From Eubacteriales bacterium (GTDB lineage Bacteria > Bacillota > Clostridia > Oscillospirales > CAG-272): DNA of 64,000 nucleotides. Position numbers and translations under genes: made by a program. The notes under the pieces are model-generated. The model ran no database searches and was not told the DNA's origin. It saw nothing but the letters and a program-made list of their open reading frames with translations. The stretch spans positions 31,403 through 95,402 of the forward strand of contig JAZNDW010000012.1 of assembly GCA_045588245.1 (NCBI GenBank), read 5' to 3'. Shown here piece after piece: positions 7,116 through 49,739 of this stretch. Numbering within the stretch: position 1 is the first letter of the stretch; every line of letters starts with the position of its first letter.

Positions 7116-8293
7116 CGAGGCTGTTCTTATTCATCATCGGATACGCAAAATTTTACGTTAATGAAGCTGACGCTATTATTCTGACGCAGCTTGCGTTTCG
7201 GTCGCATATACAGCTTTATATAAAGCGTCGAAATAAATACAGACGCATACTTTGCCGCGAATGCGACTATGCCGCGCTTTCTGAAATTGCGGCAGGCGCT
7301 AATCTTTCGTTTATCCGCGTACGTCACTCGGGGATACCGGTTTACTATAGACGCTATAAGAAACGGTACGGAATATACGTCGGTGCGGTGATACTCATTT
7401 TATTGCTTATCTTCTCGGATGATTTTGTCTGGAGGATCGATATCGTCGGGAACGAAAACGTCAGCGATGAAAAAATACTGTCTTCGCTCTCGGAGCTCGG
7501 ATTTTGCGAGGGCGTATATCATCGTGATATAGATTTTGACGTTTTGCATAACAGATTTCTGGCAAAGTCGGAGGATATAGCGTGGATAGCTGTCAATATG
7601 CACGGTAACGTGGCGACCGTTTTGATCAGGGAATATGCAAAGCCCGACAAAGAAGCGGAAAGGACTGTGGCAAACGTCGTTGCTGCCGAGGACGGTGTGA
7701 TAACGCAGGTATCAGTTTTTGACGGACGCGCCGCCGTAAAGATTGGAGATGCTGTTTCGGAAGGACAGCTTTTGATCTCAGGGGTGATGGAGTATGCGGG
7801 TGCAGAAACGAGGTATGTCTATGCCAAAGGCGAGGTATACGCAGAGGTGGAGCGACAGATATGCGTCAGCGTTCCGCTGACACAGCAAAAGAAAGTGATA
7901 ACGGGCGAGGTAAAACGCGAATACGGTATAAAAATCTTTTCCCGCGAGATATTTTTTGGCAGAAAGGGTAGAATTGAGAGCGATGTTTGTGATACAATAA
8001 CTATGTATAAAGATTTGACGCTTTTCGGTTCCGTTCCGTTGCCACTGAAACTTATTGTGACTGAGCAAACGTACTCGGAATACGTAACCGAAACCGTAAG
8101 CACCGACAGCGCGGCGGCGACGGCTTATGTTGAATACAAGCACGCTTTCATTGATGCGACAAGCGGCGTCACGCTTCTTTCGTATCAGACGAAAAGCGGA
8201 ATGAACGAAGACGGTGACGCATACGTCATTGAAGCGACGCTGCGCGTTATTGAAGATATTGCAAAAACAAAGGAATTTGACGTAGATCGGTAA
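7109..8293 (+). CDS. yqfD: sporulation protein YqfD
   Basis: Typical YqfD layout: N-terminal soluble part, a single TM (GIYVGAVILILLLIF), then WRIDIVGNENVSDEKI. It follows yqfC. Confidence 0.8.
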   Translation: MLTRLFLFIIGYAKFYVNEADAIILTQLAFRSHIQLYIKRRNKYRRILCRECDYAALSEIAAGANLSFIRVRHSGIPVYYRRYKKRYGIYVGAVILILLLIFSDDFVWRIDIVGNENVSDEKILSSLSELGFCEGVYHRDIDFDVLHNRFLAKSEDIAWIAVNMHGNVATVLIREYAKPDKEAERTVANVVAAEDGVITQVSVFDGRAAVKIGDAVSEGQLLISGVMEYAGAETRYVYAKGEVYAEVERQICVSVPLTQQKKVITGEVKREYGIKIFSREIFFGRKGRIESDVCDTITMYKDLTLFGSVPLPLKLIVTEQTYSEYVTETVSTDSAAATAYVEYKHAFIDATSGVTLLSYQTKSGMNEDGDAYVIEATLRVIEDIAKTKEFDVDR

Positions 8294-8300
8294 AATTAAT

Positions 8301-9320
8301 ATGTCAGAACGAATCATCACAACAAAATCAAGCGAAATAACGAGCCGCCTGTTTGGCAGCTTTGATATTAATTGCAGACGCATCGAGGAAGCGTTCGCCG
8401 TCAAGATACGCAACCGTCAGAATACTGACGGCGACGGTGACTGCATCGTGATCTCGGGCGAGGACGAAGCCGTAAAATTGGCGGCGGACGCGATACTTTA
8501 TCTTCGCGGTGCGGCGGAATATAATGAAACCCTTTCCGAGCAGACGGTCGATTATGTTATTGCCATGACGCAGGAGGGAAAGTCGGGAGAGCTTGAAGCT
8601 CTTGACGACTGCGTTTGCGTCACGACTCGCGGCAAACCCATCAAGGCGAAAACGGTCGGACAGAAGAAATACGTTGAAGCTATCAAAAAAAATACGGTCA
8701 TTCTCGGTGTCGGACCTGCGGGAACGGGTAAAACGTTTCTTGCCGTTGCGATGGCGTGCAAGGCTCTGCGCGAACGAGAGGTACAGCGCATCATTCTGAC
8801 GCGCCCCGCAGTTGAAGCGGGCGAAAAGCTCGGCTTTTTGCCGGGAGACTTACAAAATAAGATCGACCCGTACCTGCGTCCGCTTCACGACGCGCTTTAC
8901 GAAATGCTCGGTGCGGAGAATTATTCACGTCATATCGAGCGTCAGACGATAGAGATCGCGCCGCTCGCTTATATGAGAGGACGTACGCTTGACGATTCGT
9001 TTATCATTCTTGACGAAGCGCAGAACACGACACCCGAACAGATGAAGATGTTTTTAACGCGTCTAGGATTTAATTCAAAAGCCGTCGTTACGGGTGACCT
9101 GACGCAGACAGACTTGCCGTCAGGCAAGCGAAGCGGTCTTGCCGAAGCTGTAAAGATACTTGACGGAATTGACGATATTGCGATACACCGCTTCACGGAG
9201 CGCGACGTTGTCCGTCATAAGCTCGTGCAAAAGATCATCCTCGCATACGACCGTTTCGAGCGCGAAAAGCGCAACCGCGACGGCGACGGAAAAAATAAGT
9301 TTAAGGTTAAAAAGTTATGA
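8301..9320 (+). CDS. phoH: PhoH-family ATPase
   Basis: Walker A GPAGTGKT, LTRPAVEAGEKLGFLPGD and Walker B ILDEAQN. Conserved position before ybeY. Confidence 0.92.
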   Translation: MSERIITTKSSEITSRLFGSFDINCRRIEEAFAVKIRNRQNTDGDGDCIVISGEDEAVKLAADAILYLRGAAEYNETLSEQTVDYVIAMTQEGKSGELEALDDCVCVTTRGKPIKAKTVGQKKYVEAIKKNTVILGVGPAGTGKTFLAVAMACKALREREVQRIILTRPAVEAGEKLGFLPGDLQNKIDPYLRPLHDALYEMLGAENYSRHIERQTIEIAPLAYMRGRTLDDSFIILDEAQNTTPEQMKMFLTRLGFNSKAVVTGDLTQTDLPSGKRSGLAEAVKILDGIDDIAIHRFTERDVVRHKLVQKIILAYDRFEREKRNRDGDGKNKFKVKKL

Positions 9321-42097: not shown

Positions 42098-42312
42098 ATA
42101 TAGGTGTATAATGTGCATATGATGCGGAATAACGATATAAATCGTGGCAAATCGCAACCGTTAGGTTCGCTCAAATTACATACATAAATTGGTGGCAAAC
42201 GGCTTGCGTGTCGATTATAATACTATATCAGATGGATATGTTTTAACCGTTTACGCTTTTATATATGCTTGTTAGCCGATATAGGTCCGTATTCTGTAAA
42301 AGGAGATTAATT

Positions 42313-43950
42313 ATGAAGCTTTCTGATAAGATAACTTACTTGCGTACTAAACTCAATATGTCGCAGGAGGAGCTCGCAGACTATTTGAACGTCTCGCGGC
42401 AATCCGTTTCCAAGTGGGAGATAGGTCAGTCCGATCCGAGGATCGACAAGATCATTCAGCTTTGCGCTCTTTTCGGCGTAACGACGGATGAGCTGATCCG
42501 TGACGAGATCGACATTTCCGACGCTATTACTGAAACGGGAAGTGCCGGGCTGTCCTCAGGCAAATACTTCGGTACTGACGGTTTCCGCGGCGAGGCAAAC
42601 GTTGACCTCAACGCAGAGCAGGCGTTCAAGATCGGACGTTTTTTAGGCTGGTATTATTCAAGCTCGTTGTCAGGCTGCCGTGACCGCAACTACCGCCCGC
42701 GCATAGCCATTGGTAAGGATACGCGCCGTTCGAGCTATATGCTCGAATACGCGATTGCTGCAGGCGTGACCTCGTCGGGGGCTGACGCTTATATGCTTCA
42801 CGTAACGACGACTCCGAGCGTTTCATATGTAACGCGGCTTGACGATTTCGATTGCGGAATTATGATCTCTGCATCACATAACGTCTATTACGATAACGGT
42901 ATCAAGCTGATCAACCGCTACGGTGAAAAAATGGACGAACATACGCTGGCGCTCGTTGAAGCATATATAGACGGCAACCTTTCCGCTCTCGGTGTTGAAG
43001 GAAACGATCTTCCGCTCGCTCACAAGGAGCGCGTGGGCGCGATAATAGACTATGCCGCGGGCAGAAACCGCTACGTCGGGTACCTCATATCCGTCGTAAC
43101 ACATTCCTTCCGAAATATGAAGATAGCTCTTGACTGCGCCAACGGCGCATCGTGGATGATAGCGCCAGCCGTTTTTGAAGCGCTCGGCGCACAGATCTTC
43201 GTCATTAACGGTCAGCCCGACGGTCAGAATATCAACCGCAACGCAGGTTCGACGCACATCGAATACCTTGCCGCGTACGTTAAGGAAAACCACCTTGACG
43301 TCGGTTTCGCTTTCGACGGAGATGCGGACCGCTGCATCGCCGTTGACGAAAACGGCAACGTTATTGACGGCGATAAGATAATGTTCGTGCTTGCAAATAT
43401 GCTCAAGCGACGCGGCGCACTTGAGGATGATATGCTCGTAACGACAGTTATGTCAAACGCAGGTCTTTATAAATCATGCAAAGAAGCCGGTATTAACACG
43501 ATTCAAACAAACGTGGGCGATAAATACGTCTACGAAGCGATGCAAAAGCACGGCTACTCGCTCGGCGGCGAGCAGTCGGGACACATCATCATTCATAAGT
43601 ACGCAACGACGGGTGACGGTATACTGACGGCTCTGATGGTTATGGAGGAAATACTTGACCGTAAAACTACACTCGGTAAGCTCGCTTCCGCAGTTACGAT
43701 ATATCCGCAGGTGCTTCGCAACATCAGAGTTACCGATAAGACCGTCGTTATGAGAGATCCCGATATAAAAGTAAAGCTTGATAAGATAACGGAAAGCTTA
43801 GGTGACTCGGGAAGAATACTCGTCCGCAAGAGCGGAACAGAGCCTTTGATACGCGTTATGGCAGAGGGCGAGGATATCGATCTTTGCGAGCATTACGTTA
43901 ACTCCGTTATCGAGCTTATCAAAGCAAAAGGCTATGCCGCACGCAGCTGA
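42313..43950 (+). CDS. glmM: XRE-family HTH domain fused to a complete phosphoglucosamine mutase (GlmM-type phosphohexomutase)
   Basis: Residues 1-65: LRTKLNMSQEELADYLNVSRQSVSKWEIGQSDPRIDKIIQLCALFGVTTDELI (HTH_3). After an ~18-aa linker comes KYFGTDGFRGEAN (GlmM N-terminus). All four mutase motifs follow: ISASHN, FDGDADR, GGEQSGH, RKSGTEPLIRV. The ATG at 42313 has SD AAAGGAG upstream. Confidence 0.85.
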   Translation: MKLSDKITYLRTKLNMSQEELADYLNVSRQSVSKWEIGQSDPRIDKIIQLCALFGVTTDELIRDEIDISDAITETGSAGLSSGKYFGTDGFRGEANVDLNAEQAFKIGRFLGWYYSSSLSGCRDRNYRPRIAIGKDTRRSSYMLEYAIAAGVTSSGADAYMLHVTTTPSVSYVTRLDDFDCGIMISASHNVYYDNGIKLINRYGEKMDEHTLALVEAYIDGNLSALGVEGNDLPLAHKERVGAIIDYAAGRNRYVGYLISVVTHSFRNMKIALDCANGASWMIAPAVFEALGAQIFVINGQPDGQNINRNAGSTHIEYLAAYVKENHLDVGFAFDGDADRCIAVDENGNVIDGDKIMFVLANMLKRRGALEDDMLVTTVMSNAGLYKSCKEAGINTIQTNVGDKYVYEAMQKHGYSLGGEQSGHIIIHKYATTGDGILTALMVMEEILDRKTTLGKLASAVTIYPQVLRNIRVTDKTVVMRDPDIKVKLDKITESLGDSGRILVRKSGTEPLIRVMAEGEDIDLCEHYVNSVIELIKAKGYAARS

Positions 43951-44692: not shown

Positions 44693-46186
44693 TTACTTGT
44701 GATTTTTATATTCTTCGTTCAGCTCGGGATAAGCGGAGAGCATAGGCTCAACGTCCTCGCCATTTTTGCGTGCGTAGTAGTTTTTCGTGATCTTAACGAC
44801 CTGACCGGAAAGAAGAACTACTGCAATAAGGTTCGGCAGTGCCATAAGTCCGTTGCAAGTGTCGGAAATGCTCCATACAAGTTTACTTTCAATAACCGCA
44901 GACGCAACTATCATAACGATATAGATGAGCTTGAAAATAAACACGAACACTTTGCTGCATTTTTCACCAAAGCGCGAGAAAAGGAATTCGGTAGCCTTTT
45001 CGCCATAGTAAGACCAGGAAAGGATCGTTGTGAAAGCGAAAAGGGGAAGAATGATCGAAAAGGATACGATGCCGAATATGCCGAAATTCTCGGAGAATGC
45101 GAGCATGGATACGGCAGAGTCGGATGAGTTTGCCGTGAAGGATTCGATCGCACCGTTGCTGATAAAAGTTGTCAGAATCAACAGGGCAGTGAAAGTACAG
45201 ATTATAAATGTATCAAAGAATACTTCGAAAATTCCCCAGAGTCCCTGCTTAACGGGTTCACGTGTTTCGGAAGCGGAATGTGCGATAACGGAAGAACCGA
45301 GACCTGCTTCATTGGAGAAAACGCCGCGCGCCATACCTTTTTTGATAACGACGGAGAAAACGTAACCGCCGAAACCGCCTGCCATAGCCTTGAAACCGAA
45401 AATGTTGGAGAAAATCATGGAAAATGCTGCAGGTACGGCTTCAATGTTCATAATAACGGCGACGATACCGAGAATTATGAAGAGTAAAGACATAAACGGT
45501 ACGAGCGTGGAAGCAACTTTACCGATGCGCTTGATACCGCCGATAATGATCAGAGCAGAGAAGAGCGCAACGATAATACCGACTATAAGTTTGAAGTTCG
45601 TAGTGTCGCTGTTAAATGATGAAGCGAGCGCTCCCGAGATCTTGTTCGTCTGAACTCCGCTCATACCGAGCGCGGCGAGCATACAGAAGATGGCGGCAAG
45701 GTATCCGAGCCAACGCCAGCCAAGACCGTACGTTATGTAGTAGAAAGCACCGCCCGAGAAGTTTCCGTCCTTGTCTTTTTTACGGTAGAATAAACCGAGT
45801 ACGTTTTCTGCATAGTTTGTGATCATACCGAAAAATGCGGAGATCCACATCCAGAATACGGCGCCGGGACCGCCCGTAAGGATCGCAGAAACGACGCCGA
45901 CGATGTTACCCGTGCCGACTGTACCGGAAATAGCGGCGGAAAAGGCTTCAAACTGTGAGATAGATTTTGCGTCTGTGTCCTCTTTTTTCGGTCTGCCGAT
46001 CTCTTTGATAGTCGGAATGATGGTCGTGTTCATGGATTCGCCGAGTTTGCGTACCTGCATGACACGCGTACGGACTGTGAGCAAAATTCCCGTTCCGAGA
46101 ATCAGGATGATCATGGGCCATCCCCATACGACCCCGTTCATAAACGAGTCGATTTTTGTGATAAAGTCGATGATTTTTTCAAACAT
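44693..46186 (-). CDS. alanine/glycine:cation symporter (AGCS family)
   Basis: The N-terminus INGVVWGWPMIILILGTGILLTVRTRVMQVRKL and SQFEAFSAAISGTVGTGNIVGV are AGCS hallmarks. Confidence 0.9.
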   Translation of the reverse strand: MFEKIIDFITKIDSFMNGVVWGWPMIILILGTGILLTVRTRVMQVRKLGESMNTTIIPTIKEIGRPKKEDTDAKSISQFEAFSAAISGTVGTGNIVGVVSAILTGGPGAVFWMWISAFFGMITNYAENVLGLFYRKKDKDGNFSGGAFYYITYGLGWRWLGYLAAIFCMLAALGMSGVQTNKISGALASSFNSDTTNFKLIVGIIVALFSALIIIGGIKRIGKVASTLVPFMSLLFIILGIVAVIMNIEAVPAAFSMIFSNIFGFKAMAGGFGGYVFSVVIKKGMARGVFSNEAGLGSSVIAHSASETREPVKQGLWGIFEVFFDTFIICTFTALLILTTFISNGAIESFTANSSDSAVSMLAFSENFGIFGIVSFSIILPLFAFTTILSWSYYGEKATEFLFSRFGEKCSKVFVFIFKLIYIVMIVASAVIESKLVWSISDTCNGLMALPNLIAVVLLSGQVVKITKNYYARKNGEDVEPMLSAYPELNEEYKNHK

Positions 46187-46240: not shown

Positions 46241-46297
46241 CGAAAGTAAAACGCAAAAAGCATACCGCTGGCGTGATGCGATTGATAAAATACTTTT

Positions 46298-46465
46298 TTG
46301 CTCCGTCCTTTTGCCTGAGAGATTAGCACGAACCGTCAGGTTAGTACGTTGCACCTTCGGCATCCTTAATAGGACTTCTCCGGAGTGCTATCCGAATACA
46401 GTTCCTGTCCCGTGTTGGACACCTGAGAGTGTTACTCCTTCGGTCGCTGTGCGTCTCCTGTATTC
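46298..46465 (-). ncRNA. tandem glycine riboswitch (two aptamers)
   Basis: Aptamer 1 on the minus strand: GGAGA...ACCGAAGGAGTAA...CTCAGGTGTCCAACACGGGACAG. Aptamer 2: CTCCGGAGAAG...GCCGAAGGTGCAA...CTCTCAGGCAAAAGGACGGAG. Both match the conserved GGAGA / CCGAAGG.GCAA / CTCAGG..GGAC cores. The downstream gene class is the one typically controlled by this riboswitch. Confidence 0.9.
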
Positions 46466-46491
46466 TTCATATAGCTCTTACTTGATTCGGT

Positions 46492-46717: not shown

Positions 46718-46746
46718 TTGACAGGCGCAACATATAGTGCTATAAT
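46718..46746 (+). promoter_or_regulatory. consensus sigma-A promoter of the tRNA operon
   Basis: TTGACA-17 nt-TATAAT with TGc just upstream of the -10. An AT-rich UP-like region lies upstream. The first tRNA starts 22 nt after the -10. Confidence 0.8.
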
Positions 46747-46768: not shown

Positions 46769-46852
46769 GCCGCTGTGGCGTAATCGGCAGACGCAGCGGA
46801 CTTAAAATCCGCCGGAGTAAAATCCGTACCGGTTCAAGTCCGGTCAGCGGCA
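46769..46852 (+). tRNA. tRNA-Leu (anticodon UAA), class II with long variable arm; CCA not encoded
   Basis: Hand-folded cloverleaf. Acceptor GCCGCTG/CAGCGGC, D-stem GCGT/ACGC, anticodon stem GCGGA/TCCGC with loop CTTAAAA, variable arm CGGAGTAAAATCCGT, T-arm ACCGG-TTCAAGT-CCGGT. Confidence 0.92.
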
Positions 46853-46860
46853 CGATATAT

Positions 46861-46934
46861 CGCGGAGTGGAGCAGTCTGGTAGCTCGTTGGGCTCATAAC
46901 CCGAAGGTCGTTGGTTCAAATCCTTCCTCCGCAA
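46861..46934 (+). tRNA. initiator-type tRNA-Met (CAU) with a non-canonical T-stem; CCA not encoded
   Basis: C1xA72 mismatch (CGCGGAG...CTCCGCA-A) and three G-C pairs closing the anticodon loop (GGGCTCATAACCC) are initiator hallmarks. The T-stem GTTGG/CCTTC has two U-U mismatches (see findings). Confidence 0.75.
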
Positions 46935-46936
46935 TC

Positions 46937-47004
46937 ACGCAAAAGGACATCGAAAGATGTCCTTTTTTGCGTTATAGAGAAAATGAGCGGCAACGAGCTT
47001 CGGG
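46937..47004 (+). repeat. 68-bp direct repeat, left copy (contains the tRNA-operon terminator)
   Basis: Identical to 48484..48551 except for two C/T differences, aligned by eye base by base. Confidence 0.95.
46941..46968 (+). terminator. rho-independent terminator of the tRNA operon
   Basis: AAAAGGACATC-GAAA-GATGTCCTTTT with a T6 run. Confidence 0.85.
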
Positions 47005-47116
47005 TTCCCGAAGGACGAAGCGGTGAAGCGCCGCCGGTGGCGGAGAAAGCGAGCAAAAAGCGGGGGCAGCGGTCTATTTAGGGCATATTTGACGTTGTTT
47101 TTTGCGGAAGGTAAAC

Positions 47117-47145
47117 TTGACAAGTTGTATGCAATAATATATAAT
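47117..47145 (+). promoter_or_regulatory. consensus sigma-A promoter upstream of rtcB
   Basis: Perfect TTGACA-17 nt-TATAAT. Confidence 0.75.
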
Positions 47146-47240
47146 CGAGATAATTGGTAAAAAGGAGTTGATCGTTATGTCTGCAAAGGTATATACCGCA
47201 AACAAATTACAAACAAAACTTAATACTGATAGGAGATATA

Positions 47241-48413
47241 ATGATCAAAATACAAGGAAAAAGAAATTCGGCAATGGTTTTTGCCGACAAACTTGACAAG
47301 CCTACCAAAACACAGATAGCCTCGCTGTTGCGAGAAGAAGCTTATTCCGATAGCAAGATACGTATAATGCCCGATACTCATTCAGGAAAACACGTTGCTG
47401 TCGGAACAACGATGACCGTATCAAAGCGAATTGCACCTACTCTTGTGGGTGTTGATATCGGGTGCGGTATGGAGGTTGTGTTTTTAGCTGAGCGTGAGCT
47501 TGATTTGGAAAGACTTGATGCTATCATACATCATCAGGTTCCCGCCGGCGCAAAGGTACACAATGTCCCTCTTGCATCCTTTGACCTCAATCATCTGCTT
47601 TGCAAGGACAACGTGGATCAGGAAAGAGCGCTCCGCAGTCTTGGAACTCTTGGTGGCGGCAATCACTTTATCGAGGTGGACAGGACGGAAAACGGCAAAC
47701 TTGTGCTTGTTATCCATTCGGGCTCAAGACAGTTGGGGAGTGACGTTGCTTCCTACTATCAAGATCAAGCATACCGTTATCAATGCAAAAAGCAGCGCAA
47801 ACGAGCAAGGCAAAGCTATTACGATTCAAAGGATGCAGACACGTACTGCTTTTCTAAATCCGAAAAGGGCGCCCTTACGGTGAAACGGGAAGAAGCTATT
47901 CTTGAAGGTACCCTTTATGACGCTTACCTCCACGACTTGGCTGTTGTAACCGACTTTGCTGATTTGAACAGAAGAACTATCGCTGACCTAATATGTAAGA
48001 ATATGGGGCTTACCGTAACGGATAGGTTTTCGTGCGTTCACAATTACATTGATACAGAGTATATGATACTCCGCAAGGGTGCCATCTCTGCCCGTTTGGG
48101 TGAAAGAGTGATAATACCGCTTAATATGAGAGATGGGGCGGTGCTTGGTGTGGGGAAAGGAAATCCCGAGTGGAATTTTTCCGCTCCTCACGGCGCAGGA
48201 CGTGCATGCAGCAGAACAGAAGCGAAGTACGCTTTTACCGTCGAAGATTATCAACGCCAAATGGAGGGAATATTCACGACAACGGCAAACACGGGCTCTA
48301 TTGACGAGTGCCCGATGGCATACAAATCACCCCGACGGATACTTGATTTTATAGAAGAAACAGTCTCGGATATTGAGATTATAAGACCAATATACAATTT
48401 CAAATCTTGTTGA
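47241..48413 (+). CDS. rtcB: RtcB-family RNA 3'-phosphate/5'-OH ligase (short ~390-aa Firmicute type)
   Basis: IRIMPDTHSGK, VGVDIGCGM, GGGNHFIEV, IHSGSRQLG, VHNYID and SAPHGAGR are all present, so the metal ligands and the guanylyl-His motif are intact. SD AGGAGA lies 6 nt upstream. Confidence 0.9.
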   Translation: MIKIQGKRNSAMVFADKLDKPTKTQIASLLREEAYSDSKIRIMPDTHSGKHVAVGTTMTVSKRIAPTLVGVDIGCGMEVVFLAERELDLERLDAIIHHQVPAGAKVHNVPLASFDLNHLLCKDNVDQERALRSLGTLGGGNHFIEVDRTENGKLVLVIHSGSRQLGSDVASYYQDQAYRYQCKKQRKRARQSYYDSKDADTYCFSKSEKGALTVKREEAILEGTLYDAYLHDLAVVTDFADLNRRTIADLICKNMGLTVTDRFSCVHNYIDTEYMILRKGAISARLGERVIIPLNMRDGAVLGVGKGNPEWNFSAPHGAGRACSRTEAKYAFTVEDYQRQMEGIFTTTANTGSIDECPMAYKSPRRILDFIEETVSDIEIIRPIYNFKSC

Positions 48414-48415
48414 TT

Positions 48416-48457
48416 CTTTGCAAAAGGTCATCGGTTCTCCGATGACCTTTTGCAAAG
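48416..48457 (+). terminator. 19-bp perfect hairpin after rtcB (probable terminator or stabiliser; T-run only 7 nt further downstream)
   Basis: CTTTGCAAAAGGTCATCGG-ttct-CCGATGACCTTTTGCAAAG. Confidence 0.6.
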
Positions 48458-48483
48458 ATGCATCTTTTTTGGCACCTCTACTA

Positions 48484-48551
48484 ACGCAAAAGGACATCGA
48501 AAGATGTCTTTTTTTGCGTTATAGAGAAAATGAGCGGCAACGAGTTTCGGG
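48484..48551 (+). repeat. 68-bp direct repeat, right copy (second copy of the terminator hairpin at 48488..48515)
   Basis: See the left copy. The differences are CC->CT in the hairpin 3' arm and GCTT->GTTT near the end. Confidence 0.95.
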
Positions 48552-48569: not shown

Positions 48570-48598
48570 TTGATTTTAACTCTGAATGACGATATAAT
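48570..48598 (+). promoter_or_regulatory. sigma-A promoter of the D-lactate dehydrogenase gene
   Basis: TTGATT-17 nt-TATAAT. Confidence 0.65.
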
Positions 48599-48704: not shown

Positions 48705-49739
48705 ATGAAAATAGCATTTTTTGACACAAAAACCTATGATATTCCGTCTTTTGAAAAGTTCGCGAGTATGCATGGAGTCACGATCAAATATTATGAAACG
48801 AAGCTCAATGAGGATACAGCGAAGCTTGCAAACGGAGCTGATGCGGTTTGTGTTTTCGTGAACGATACCGTAAATGCGGCTGTGATCGACCGCTTATATG
48901 ATATGGGCGTCAAGGTGCTGGCGCTTCGCTGTGCGGGCTTCAATAACGTTGACATGAAGCATGCGTACGGCAAGCTTCATGTGCTGCGCGTACCTGCGTA
49001 CTCGCCCTATGCTGTCGCAGAACACGCGATTGCACTTTTGCTTACATCCATCCGCAGAATACACAAGGCTTACATCCGTTCAAGAGACTTTAATTTCAGT
49101 TTGTCGGGACTTGCGGGTTTTGACCTCTACGGAAAGACCGTGGGTGTCGTCGGCACGGGTAAGATTGGCAAAGTTTTCATAAATATCTGCCACGGATTTG
49201 GAATGAAAGTACTTGCGTACGATAAATTCCCCTCAAAAGAACTTGATAACGGCGATACTGTCAGATACGTTACGCTTGACGAACTGTTGAAAAACAGCGA
49301 CATTATATCGTTGCATTGTCCGCTGACGGAAGAAACGTATCATATGATAAATGAAGACGCCTTGGAGAAATGCAAAAAAGGTGTCGTTCTCATAAATACG
49401 TCAAGAGGCGCGCTCGTTGATGCGGAAGCACTGTTGGGGGCGATCAAATCAAGAAAAGTCGGTGCCGCCTGCCTTGACGTGTACGAGGAAGAATCGGAAC
49501 TGTTTTTTGAAGATAATTCGGGACATATCATGGAGGATGATACGCTTGCGCGCCTTATTTCCATGCCGAACGTTATCGTAACGTCGCATCAGGCGTTTTT
49601 GACGGATGACGCACTTCTGAATATCGCTGAAACGACAATAAACAATATCGTCGGTTTCTTCGCTACGAATCAGTGCCCGAACGAGCTTTGCTACAACGGC
49701 GGAGAAGCCGTTGACTGCAAGGACGGCAAATGTTTCTGA
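48705..49739 (+). CDS. ldhA: D-lactate dehydrogenase / D-isomer-specific 2-hydroxyacid dehydrogenase
   Basis: MKIAFFDTKTYD... start, NAD fold GVVGTGKIGKVF, and catalytic R/E/H blocks (NTSRGALVD, TSHQAFLT). Confidence 0.8.
   Translation: MKIAFFDTKTYDIPSFEKFASMHGVTIKYYETKLNEDTAKLANGADAVCVFVNDTVNAAVIDRLYDMGVKVLALRCAGFNNVDMKHAYGKLHVLRVPAYSPYAVAEHAIALLLTSIRRIHKAYIRSRDFNFSLSGLAGFDLYGKTVGVVGTGKIGKVFINICHGFGMKVLAYDKFPSKELDNGDTVRYVTLDELLKNSDIISLHCPLTEETYHMINEDALEKCKKGVVLINTSRGALVDAEALLGAIKSRKVGAACLDVYEEESELFFEDNSGHIMEDDTLARLISMPNVIVTSHQAFLTDDALLNIAETTINNIVGFFATNQCPNELCYNGGEAVDCKDGKCF

Follow-up and report, generated by a model that had tools for sequence, protein, structure and literature searches.

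Genomic islands of the Islander type integrate at tRNA and tmRNA genes by means of a tyrosine integrase (PMC4383910), and tandem tRNA-associated islands have been described for the tycheposon (10.1101/2020.12.28.424599) and at Dehalococcoides ssrA (PMC3146451). cis-Mobilizable elements (CIMEs) are decayed integrative elements that keep their left and right attachment sites (attL and attR) but have lost the integrase and transfer genes (PMC5704250). Integrons and attC-site clusters without an integron integrase (CALIN) hold gene cassettes in arrays, and a 2016 survey recorded Firmicutes as being without complete integrons (PMC4889954). Here, we analyze a 64,000-nucleotide stretch of DNA from a Eubacteriales bacterium (GenBank assembly GCA_045588245.1; hereafter the window), in which a gene for an RtcB-family RNA ligase stands between two 68-nt direct repeats just 3' of a tRNA-Leu/tRNA-fMet operon, and compare it with 106 related loci (L001-L106). 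RtcB-family activity is the GTP/Mn-dependent joining of 3'-phosphate or 2',3'-cyclic-phosphate RNA ends to 5'-OH ends, and by analogy with its family the present enzyme is expected to seal breaks with 2',3'-cyclic-phosphate and 5'-OH ends. In mobile insertion cassettes (MICs), passenger genes lie between terminal inverted repeats of the insertion sequence (IS) type and the transposase acts in trans.

RtcB itself is known from the rtcBA-rtcR RNA-repair operon of Proteobacteria and from the RtcB2-PrfH ribosome-repair pair (PMC7790460; PMC9304027; PMC5175333), and leader-peptide translational attenuators are known from the erm and cat resistance genes (PMC8274638; PMC5499644). We consider it probable, with moderate confidence, that the segment between the repeats (47005-48483, ~1.48 kb) is a horizontally acquired single-gene cassette without a recombinase of its own, and that its insertion generated the repeats.

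The rtcB module recurs in different genomic contexts

The locus is laid out as follows, in window coordinates.

46769..46853, + strand: tRNA-Leu(UAA), called by ARAGORN and Rfam
46861..46934 (Rfam) or 46860-46936 (ARAGORN), + strand: initiator tRNA-fMet (CAU)
46937..47004, + strand: left 68-nt direct repeat (attL-like), from a repeat search of the window
47005..47099, + strand: GC-rich element, 58% GC
47117..47145, + strand: rtcB promoter, a perfect TTGACA-17-TATAAT (12/12), kept in 8/9 related cassettes
47241..48413, + strand: rtcB, encoding a 390-aa RtcB-family RNA ligase
48415..48458, + strand: perfect hairpin of 20 bp with a 4-nt loop, the rtcB terminator
48459..48483, + strand: right-end motif GCATCTTTTTTGGCACCTCTACTA, a homologue of the GGCATCTTTTTTGTCAACACG right terminal inverted repeat in related-array cassettes
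48484..48551, + strand: right 68-nt direct repeat (attR-like), in which the tRNA terminator and trailer recur
48705-49739: ldhA-like gene for a D-2-hydroxyacid (D-lactate-type) dehydrogenase

The encoded protein matches Pfam PF01139 at 191 bits (cutoff 27, E = 5.5e-56). Its motifs GVDIGCG (D72, C75), GGGNHF (H142), IHSGSR (H159) and SAPHGAGR (H317) align with P. horikoshii RtcB, in agreement with the original prediction that the catalytic motifs are intact, and the metal-binding Asp/Cys/His and His-nucleophile motifs are invariant in 15 homologues. By sequence, then, this is a bona fide RtcB-family ligase. It scores below the NCBIfam equivalog cutoffs of both the E. coli-type family PRK09588 (126.8 against 407) and the PrfH-coupled family TIGR03073 (98 against 271.8), and neither rtcA, rtcR nor prfH lies near the gene. 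The enzyme shares its fold and catalytic motifs with the rtcBA-rtcR and RtcB2-PrfH systems and presumably likewise answers damage to the translation machinery, but it is encoded alone, without RtcA, RtcR, a sigma-54 promoter or PrfH. The promoter, which had been noted earlier as perfect and matches at all 12 positions, predicts that rtcB expression is autonomous. The 3' hairpin is also present as described, with 20 bp rather than the 19 first counted. Exact look-ups of the window RtcB and LdhA sequences returned no record.

RtcB proteins of 78-89% identity are common in Oscillospiraceae/Ruminococcaceae metagenomes. More than 100 clusters in this identity range come from contigs 1.2-2.6 kb in length, about that of a single cassette, and metagenome assemblers appear to break at cassette edges. 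The module of promoter, leader, rtcB and hairpin (~47077-48482) occurs in at least six distinct flanking contexts, the window included. The others are listed here.

L001-L004: 5', a 201-aa gene followed by tRNA-Leu and tRNA-fMet; 3', a dockerin gene followed by a SpoU methylase
L104: 5', a beta-lactamase-like gene, tRNA-Leu, tRNA-fMet and an extra 137-aa cassette; 3', different sequence
L105 and L106: 5', a protein-coding gene and no tRNA; 3', a SpoU methylase
L094-L103: tRNA-Cys or pseudo-tRNA-Cys arrays
L005: a non-tRNA array

The window block is 86-88% identical at the nucleotide level to L001, L002, L104 and L105/L106, and what is shared is the promoter, leader, rtcB, hairpin and the short motif at 48459-48483, where cross-species homology stops. 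The left edge of the block falls at 47077, 47100 or 47112. Its right edge falls at 48481-48482 in L001 (alignments summed), L002, L105 and L106, 2-3 nt before the right repeat begins at 48484, and at 48454 in L104. The extra cassette of L104 (2040-2680) encodes a 137-aa membrane protein, carries a separate promoter as well as a GCATCTTTTTGG end motif, and sits between the GC-rich element and the rtcB promoter.

The GC-rich stretch described earlier (112 nt, 47005-47116) has 55.4% GC, compared with 47.5% for the window and 27-37% for neighboring intergenic regions. Within it, a 29-nt core (GAAGCGCCGCCGGTGGCGGAGAAAGCGAG, 47025-47053) is kept between tRNA-fMet and rtcB in L001, L002 and L104, and no other part of the stretch is shared with the tRNA-fMet-linked loci. 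A four-sequence alignment of the element gave at most a 6-bp consensus hairpin and no covariation, and Rfam matched neither the GC-rich stretch nor the rtcB leader to a known RNA family.

Searches for the cassette elsewhere returned little. A metagenome scan with the conserved leader gave two short contigs and nothing else, scans of viral contigs with the inverted-repeat motif and with the leader gave no match, and plasmid and phage BLAST searches with the whole cassette recovered distant rtcB cores only, leaving an origin as a phage moron or from a plasmid unsupported. In the first 60 of the more distant loci (L006-L084, rtcB ~45% identical), rtcB has a tRNA gene no more than 500 nt away in 7 cases, against a rough chance expectation of ~2%, and in L042 an array of 18 tRNAs starts 339 nt downstream of rtcB.

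Composition and divergence point to horizontal acquisition

Codon and domain tests covered the 49 open reading frames (ORFs) of at least 120 aa in the window. The GC content at third codon positions (GC3) of rtcB, 0.441, is the lowest of the 49 (mean 0.544, sd 0.043), and its synonymous-usage z score of -5.97 is the most extreme (mean -0.23, sd 2.1), although two other ORFs reach -4.3 to -4.7, so that rtcB is an outlier without being extreme. A codon bias had previously been judged by eye; on computation, GCT, CAA, TTG, AGA and AGG are enriched and GCG, CCG, CGC and ACG depleted as it described, whereas GGT is not enriched. Judged from codon usage, the locus has the foreign composition of horizontally transferred tRNA-targeting islands.

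Divergence gives a second line of evidence. Synonymous divergence (dS) between the window rtcB and those of L001, L002, L104 and L105 is 0.41-0.55, with 73-78% identity at third positions. By comparison, the ldhA-like gene and its best homologues, drawn from a collection of 5.8 billion proteins (83-84% amino-acid identity), share only 41-44% of third positions and their dS is saturated. Between the window and L001/L002, tRNA-Leu is 79% and tRNA-fMet 85.5% identical, and the adjacent protein-coding module 87%. Homologues of Ffh, a slowly evolving core protein, comprise one sister clade at 89% (a cluster of 22 members), a handful at 78-81% and the bulk at 70-73%, unlike RtcB, for which the clusters at 78-89% number more than 100. 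The low rtcB dS and the tRNA and Ffh comparisons together indicate that the module is younger in this genome than the split of the host from any sequenced relative. As conservation is lower in the tRNAs than in the module, we rejected the idea that the mobile unit includes the tRNA pair.

These data bear on an alternative that we regard as unlikely yet deserving serious weight, namely that the linkage of tRNA-fMet, GC-rich element and rtcB is ancestral and vertically inherited, and that template switching at the hairpin loop, or gene conversion, later copied the tRNA trailer locally to give the right 68-mer, independently of any cassette insertion. L001-L004 and L104 share with the window the order tRNA-Leu, tRNA-fMet, GC-rich core, rtcB. 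Moreover, the rtcB genes of L001 and L002 diverge at the rate of their neighbors (dS 0.32, neighbors 0.2-0.5), which counts against the cassette interpretation and means that rtcB, once acquired, can be stably inherited for long periods. Against ancestral linkage, the rtcB dS lies far below the divergence of the host from any known relative, the adjacent tRNAs are less conserved than the module, the codon usage of rtcB is the most atypical in the window, and the module is also found without any tRNA.

The 68-nt repeats and a proposed mode of insertion

The borders of the segment contain two further features.

46937-46972, + strand: tRNA-operon terminator inside the left repeat (A-tract, hairpin, T-tract)
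46986..47027, + strand: imperfect hairpin with core CTTCGGG-TT-CCCGAAG (46998-47013), its loop exactly at the end of the left repeat

The two 68-nt repeats are 97% identical, with C/T differences at 46962/48509 and 46998/48545, and the 64-kb window holds two matches to the 68-mer where 0.00 were expected. Each copy consists of GGACATC-GAAA-GATGTCC, a T-run and 36 more nt, and the left one begins 1-3 nt past tRNA-fMet, depending on whether the ARAGORN or the Rfam boundary is used. The right repeat holds just the 5' arm of the CTTCGGG-TT-CCCGAAG hairpin, which is complete in the left copy alone. All of these details bear out the first description of the repeats.

A third copy is present neither in the remaining 62 kb of the window nor in the 106 related loci, and the 68-mer has no match in Joint Genome Institute (JGI) metagenome contigs (scanned with the 29-nt repeat core), plasmids or phages. 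The earlier note had allowed that the 68-mer might prove to be a high-copy element, and within the window and related loci no such spread was seen. This makes it the least probable of the readings considered here that the 68-mer is a dispersed terminator element, of the repetitive extragenic palindromic kind, that flanks rtcB by chance, even though it does contain a hairpin of the bidirectional terminator type.

An assembly artefact, in which a short-read or metagenome assembler spliced in the cassette through a shared repeat or doubled the repeat itself, is likewise very improbable. Homologous rtcB cassettes do often end up on contigs of 1.2-2.6 kb with assemblies breaking at their edges, and the host genome is a single record. 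However, the two repeat copies differ at two positions, both junctions are continuous inside one 171.7-kb contig, and analogous repeat-flanked structures occur in the independent assemblies of L001, L005 and L094.

The original prediction was that a cassette had been inserted by recombination at the tRNA terminator and had duplicated it. Its first half stands in that rtcB as a discrete, horizontally mobile cassette is largely supported by the sequence contexts, the boundary, the codons and the dS; the duplication itself would follow from the insertion event, and an empty site has not been found. The right boundary of the cassette fits insertion exactly, and cross-species homology ending precisely where the right repeat starts is hard to reconcile with ancestral linkage, while the continuity of the left repeat with the hairpin and GC-rich element, together with the cut of the right copy at the hairpin loop, favors it.

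In the mechanism we propose, the cassette would comprise the GC-rich element, promoter, upstream-ORF leader, rtcB, terminator and a degenerate right-end site, and would belong to a family of small Oscillospiraceae cassettes that insert at the 3' ends of tRNA genes, behaving as a CIME-like, cis-mobilizable remnant. It may have entered by recombination within the first 68 nt 3' of tRNA-fMet, either site-specifically with a recombinase encoded elsewhere or by a Campbell-type single crossover of a circular copy. An incoming copy, running from the 68-mer through the end motif, would have recombined with a resident tRNA-fMet/68-mer/ldhA site and left the tRNA terminator and trailer doubled as attL-like and attR-like repeats. 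Both the origin of the 68-nt duplication in the insertion event and the action of a recombinase are what we infer from this anatomy. In the alignment to L001 and L002 there is a hint that the conserved GC-rich element may already include the final ~15 nt of the left repeat. Because of this, and because the hairpin is complete on the left only, the incoming DNA probably carried its own attP-like trailer copy, which speaks against plain duplication of the target at a staggered cut; recombination of the site-specific or Campbell type fits better than simple target-site duplication.

Several observations weigh against insertion. If the ~15-nt tail is homologous to the element, the right repeat could derive secondarily from element sequence and not from a naive target. 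The search found no empty site made up of tRNA-fMet, a single 68-mer and ldhA; the closest relatives are too distant and non-syntenic, and the best-matching ldhA homologues (83-84%) are preceded by a Crp-family regulator, with no tRNA. The repeats start after the tRNA and exclude its 3' end, which is atypical for tRNA-targeting integrases, and the window cassette has a degenerate right-end motif only, with no left inverted repeat. No cognate recombinase was found in the window or in the related loci examined. We also considered whether the bases immediately left of the right repeat are a degenerate 3' end of tRNA-fMet and rejected this, as only 2/6 bases match.

Related cassettes accumulate at tRNA ends

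In L094, an intact tRNA-Cys ends at 7685 and an rtcB cassette begins at the next nucleotide. This cassette has 31-nt terminal inverted repeats (7686-7716 and 9184-9214) and no transposase, and ~130 nt beyond it lie a displaced 20-nt tRNA-Cys 3' end and the native terminator. The displaced terminator is the one that directly follows an intact tRNA-Cys in L095, which provides an unoccupied tRNA-Cys/terminator junction relative to L094. The 1.54-kb unit of L094 recurs behind a protein-coding gene in L005, 82% identical end to end. There, ~105-nt near-identical repeats flank rtcB, each with a lox-like palindrome (21-nt arms, 6-nt spacer). The palindromic junctions of L005 lie at 302-349 (21-nt arms, 6-nt spacer) and 1817-1870 (19-nt arms 16 nt apart). 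No recombinase stands beside the rtcB cassettes of L005 or L094, and none was found among the called genes of the related loci.

In L095 and L098, small genes that mostly lack annotation are strung together in arrays, each behind its own promoter and separated by a shared end motif, terminators and pseudo-tRNA-Cys 3' ends. Cassettes of the group with 78-80% identical RtcB are bounded in such arrays by inverted repeats of 20-31 nt. The arrays span 6380-17173 in L098, 9400-16500 in L094 and 5800-11000 in L095, and between their genes lie highly repetitive mosaics built of hairpins, pseudo-tRNA-Cys ends and promoter modules. The motif GGCATCTTTTTTGTCAAC recurs in loci of the 78-80% RtcB group and is essentially absent from 80 loci with ~45% identical rtcB. 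L001 repeats part of the tRNA-fMet 3' end together with the terminator. Runs of GTGATGTT / ACATCAC 7-8-mers surround small hairpins right after tRNA terminators (L095 5830-6010, L001 7612-7650) and might be arm-type recombinase binding sites. PADLOC and Pfam searches of ten neighboring cassette proteins from L094 and L098 gave no defense-system match and essentially no annotation, and an array of immunity genes is unsupported.

The anatomy of these loci fits tRNA-gene site-specific integration with tandem accretion (PMC4383910; 10.1101/2020.12.28.424599) and CIMEs (PMC5704250). As in tRNA islands, foreign DNA lies directly at a tRNA-gene 3' end between direct repeats, and relatives show a regenerated tRNA with a displaced 3' fragment and tandem accretion (L094, L095, L098, L001). 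In contrast to such islands, the unit is ~1.5 kb with one cargo gene, and there is no integrase in or near it; the expectation that the window encodes no integrase or transposase held in a Pfam search of the whole 64 kb, with 0 of 49 ORFs carrying such a domain. The window repeat also lies just beyond the tRNA instead of overlapping its 3' end, although overlap is seen in L094 and L095 (tRNA-Cys) and in L001 (tRNA-fMet). The cassette resembles CIMEs in having no integrase, att-like direct repeats at its bounds and accreted tandems in relatives, but it is much smaller, no parent integrative and conjugative or integrative and mobilizable element or cognate integrase was found, and its repeats are putative att sites. 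Such a miniature cassette, carrying cargo but no integrase and inserted at a tRNA gene, would be a variant on known tRNA-associated elements.

The likeness to integrons and CALIN arrays consists of single-gene units between similar imperfect palindromic sites, in arrays without an integrase, exemplified by the L005 cassette between ~105-nt near-identical sites, each with a 48-nt palindrome. Unlike integron cassettes, these carry their own promoter (perfect in the window), the arrays are tied to tRNA 3' ends, IntI is absent, and by inspection the 68-mer and related palindromes miss the attC consensus R''(RYYYAAC)...R'(GTTRRRY). With MICs, the L094 cassette shares terminal inverted repeats (31 nt), a single passenger gene and the lack of a transposase, whereas the window copy keeps one degenerate end and its 68-nt flanking duplication far exceeds any IS target duplication. 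We know of no IS that matches the rtcB cassette ends.

A broader reading, tentative and rather doubtful when its parts are taken jointly, is that gut and rumen Oscillospiraceae harbor an undescribed integron-like cassette system that includes a leader-gated RtcB cargo sensing ribosome stalling. Single genes with their own promoters would be bounded by ~20-31-nt inverted repeats (GGCATCTTTTTTGTCAACACG), neighboring cassette ends would form lox-like palindromes, and a recombinase encoded elsewhere would move the cassettes into arrays that accrete at tRNA 3' ends (tRNA-Cys, tRNA-fMet). The RtcB cargo would be a portable, damage-inducible RNA-repair module, and the 68-nt repeats of the window a recent footprint.

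The same comparisons bear on why rtcB stands next to tRNA-fMet. A functional tie, suggested at first as a countermeasure to tRNA damage, would have rtcB retained there to mend initiator tRNA that has been cut, for instance by a VapC-type toxin. The gene does follow tRNA-Leu/tRNA-fMet in three different left-flank contexts, and RtcB-family enzymes can re-ligate cleaved tRNAs (PMC7790460; PMC10630183). However, 78-80% identical RtcB cassettes with the same leader adjoin tRNA-Cys, pseudo-tRNA fragments or no tRNA at all, a terminator stands between the tRNAs and rtcB, which is served by a promoter of its own, partial tRNA 3' duplicates suggest use as attachment sites, and there is no toxin gene nearby. 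We therefore consider functional co-location quite improbable, and because close homologues have such varied neighbors, the position beside tRNA-fMet appears best explained as an integration-site preference rather than a mark of substrate. Caution is due in general, as a gene beside a tRNA gene often reflects attachment-site preference and not function. From the literature, a general role for this RtcB in repair of tRNA or rRNA breaks is plausible; the locus gives it no specific support.

A conserved upstream ORF and helix may gate rtcB translation

Between the promoter and rtcB, the cassette carries a leader with two overlapping features.

47177..47296, + strand: upstream ORF of 39 codons (MSAKVYTANKLQTKLNTDRRYND...), kept in 11/11 homologous cassettes
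47168..47248, + strand: leader helix, in which 47168-47184 (upstream-ORF start region) pairs with 47232-47248 (rtcB Shine-Dalgarno and AUG)

The upstream ORF has a strong Shine-Dalgarno sequence of its own (AAAGGAG, 47161-47167) and runs out of frame across the rtcB start. It has 36-39 codons in all 11 cassettes, with an ATG-to-ATG spacing that is always 64 nt. The helix closes an A/C-rich, unstructured loop of 47 nt and has, in the window, a free energy of -20.7 kcal/mol and a minimum-free-energy z score of -3.3. Its 16 bp are paired in 176/176 cells across the 11 cassettes; 14 of the 16 pairs are invariant, two vary by wobble-compatible single changes and none covaries. The case for the helix consists of conservation and thermodynamics, with covariation in 0/16 pairs, and the same bases are under constraint in their role as Shine-Dalgarno sequences and start codons, both of which weaken it. 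The leader is absent from the ~45% identical rtcB homologues.

The leader combines the structural elements of an attenuator, a translatable upstream ORF and a helix occluding the downstream Shine-Dalgarno sequence and AUG, and as a prediction it looks like translational coupling or attenuation of the erm/cat kind. Pairing of the upstream-ORF start region with the rtcB Shine-Dalgarno/AUG would gate rtcB translation, such that rtcB would be translated only if a ribosome initiates on the upstream ORF, and more if a ribosome stalls there, tying ligase output to the state of the translation machinery. The erm and cat attenuators share with it a short upstream ORF with a strong Shine-Dalgarno sequence followed by a helix that hides the downstream start. 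In contrast to them, the rtcB leader forms one helix directly between both start regions, its upstream ORF overlaps the rtcB start, and it has no known stalling signal, attenuation being predicted here. Regulation would also differ from that of rtcBA-rtcR in appearing to use an upstream ORF and leader helix instead of a CARF-domain activator. In the literature searched, we found no description of leader-peptide-controlled RtcB.

Surroundings of the locus

Two further promoter features flank the cassette and its tRNAs.

46718..46746, + strand: promoter of the tRNA-Leu/tRNA-fMet operon, TTGACA-17-TATAAT with TG extension, 12/12 positions matching
48570..48598, + strand: promoter-like site 5' of the dehydrogenase gene

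By inspection, the tRNA-Met(CAU) has the initiator marks of a C1xA72 mismatch and a GGG/CCC anticodon stem (three G-C pairs), and TCA stands in place of an encoded CCA on its 3' side. Core genes surround the locus (spoIIIA operon, ffh, nadE, recO, era, ybeY, mutS2). Farther upstream, a Na:alanine/glycine symporter gene (44693-46186) is preceded at 46293-46470 (- strand) by a glycine riboswitch aptamer (56 bits, against a gathering score of 32) and by a second, weaker aptamer (22 bits). The ORF at 42265-43950 (+ strand) joins an XRE-type helix-turn-helix (aa 25-77) to a four-domain phosphogluco/phosphoglucosamine mutase, either as an unusual fusion or through a start codon placed too far 5'.

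Implications for RNA repair in gut and rumen Clostridia

Two main leads emerge from this locus: the junctions seen in the related arrays, with their inverted repeats and palindromes, and the leader with its upstream ORF. The first points to very small, integrase-less cargo cassettes with inverted-repeat ends and palindromic junctions in a phylum essentially without classical integrons. The second, a conserved upstream ORF and helix, suggests control of RtcB independent of RtcR, which could couple ligase synthesis to ribosome stalling. If this interpretation is true, RNA-repair capacity in abundant gut and rumen Clostridia would be a small plug-in rather than a fixed housekeeping trait, one that moves between species and lands at tRNA genes.

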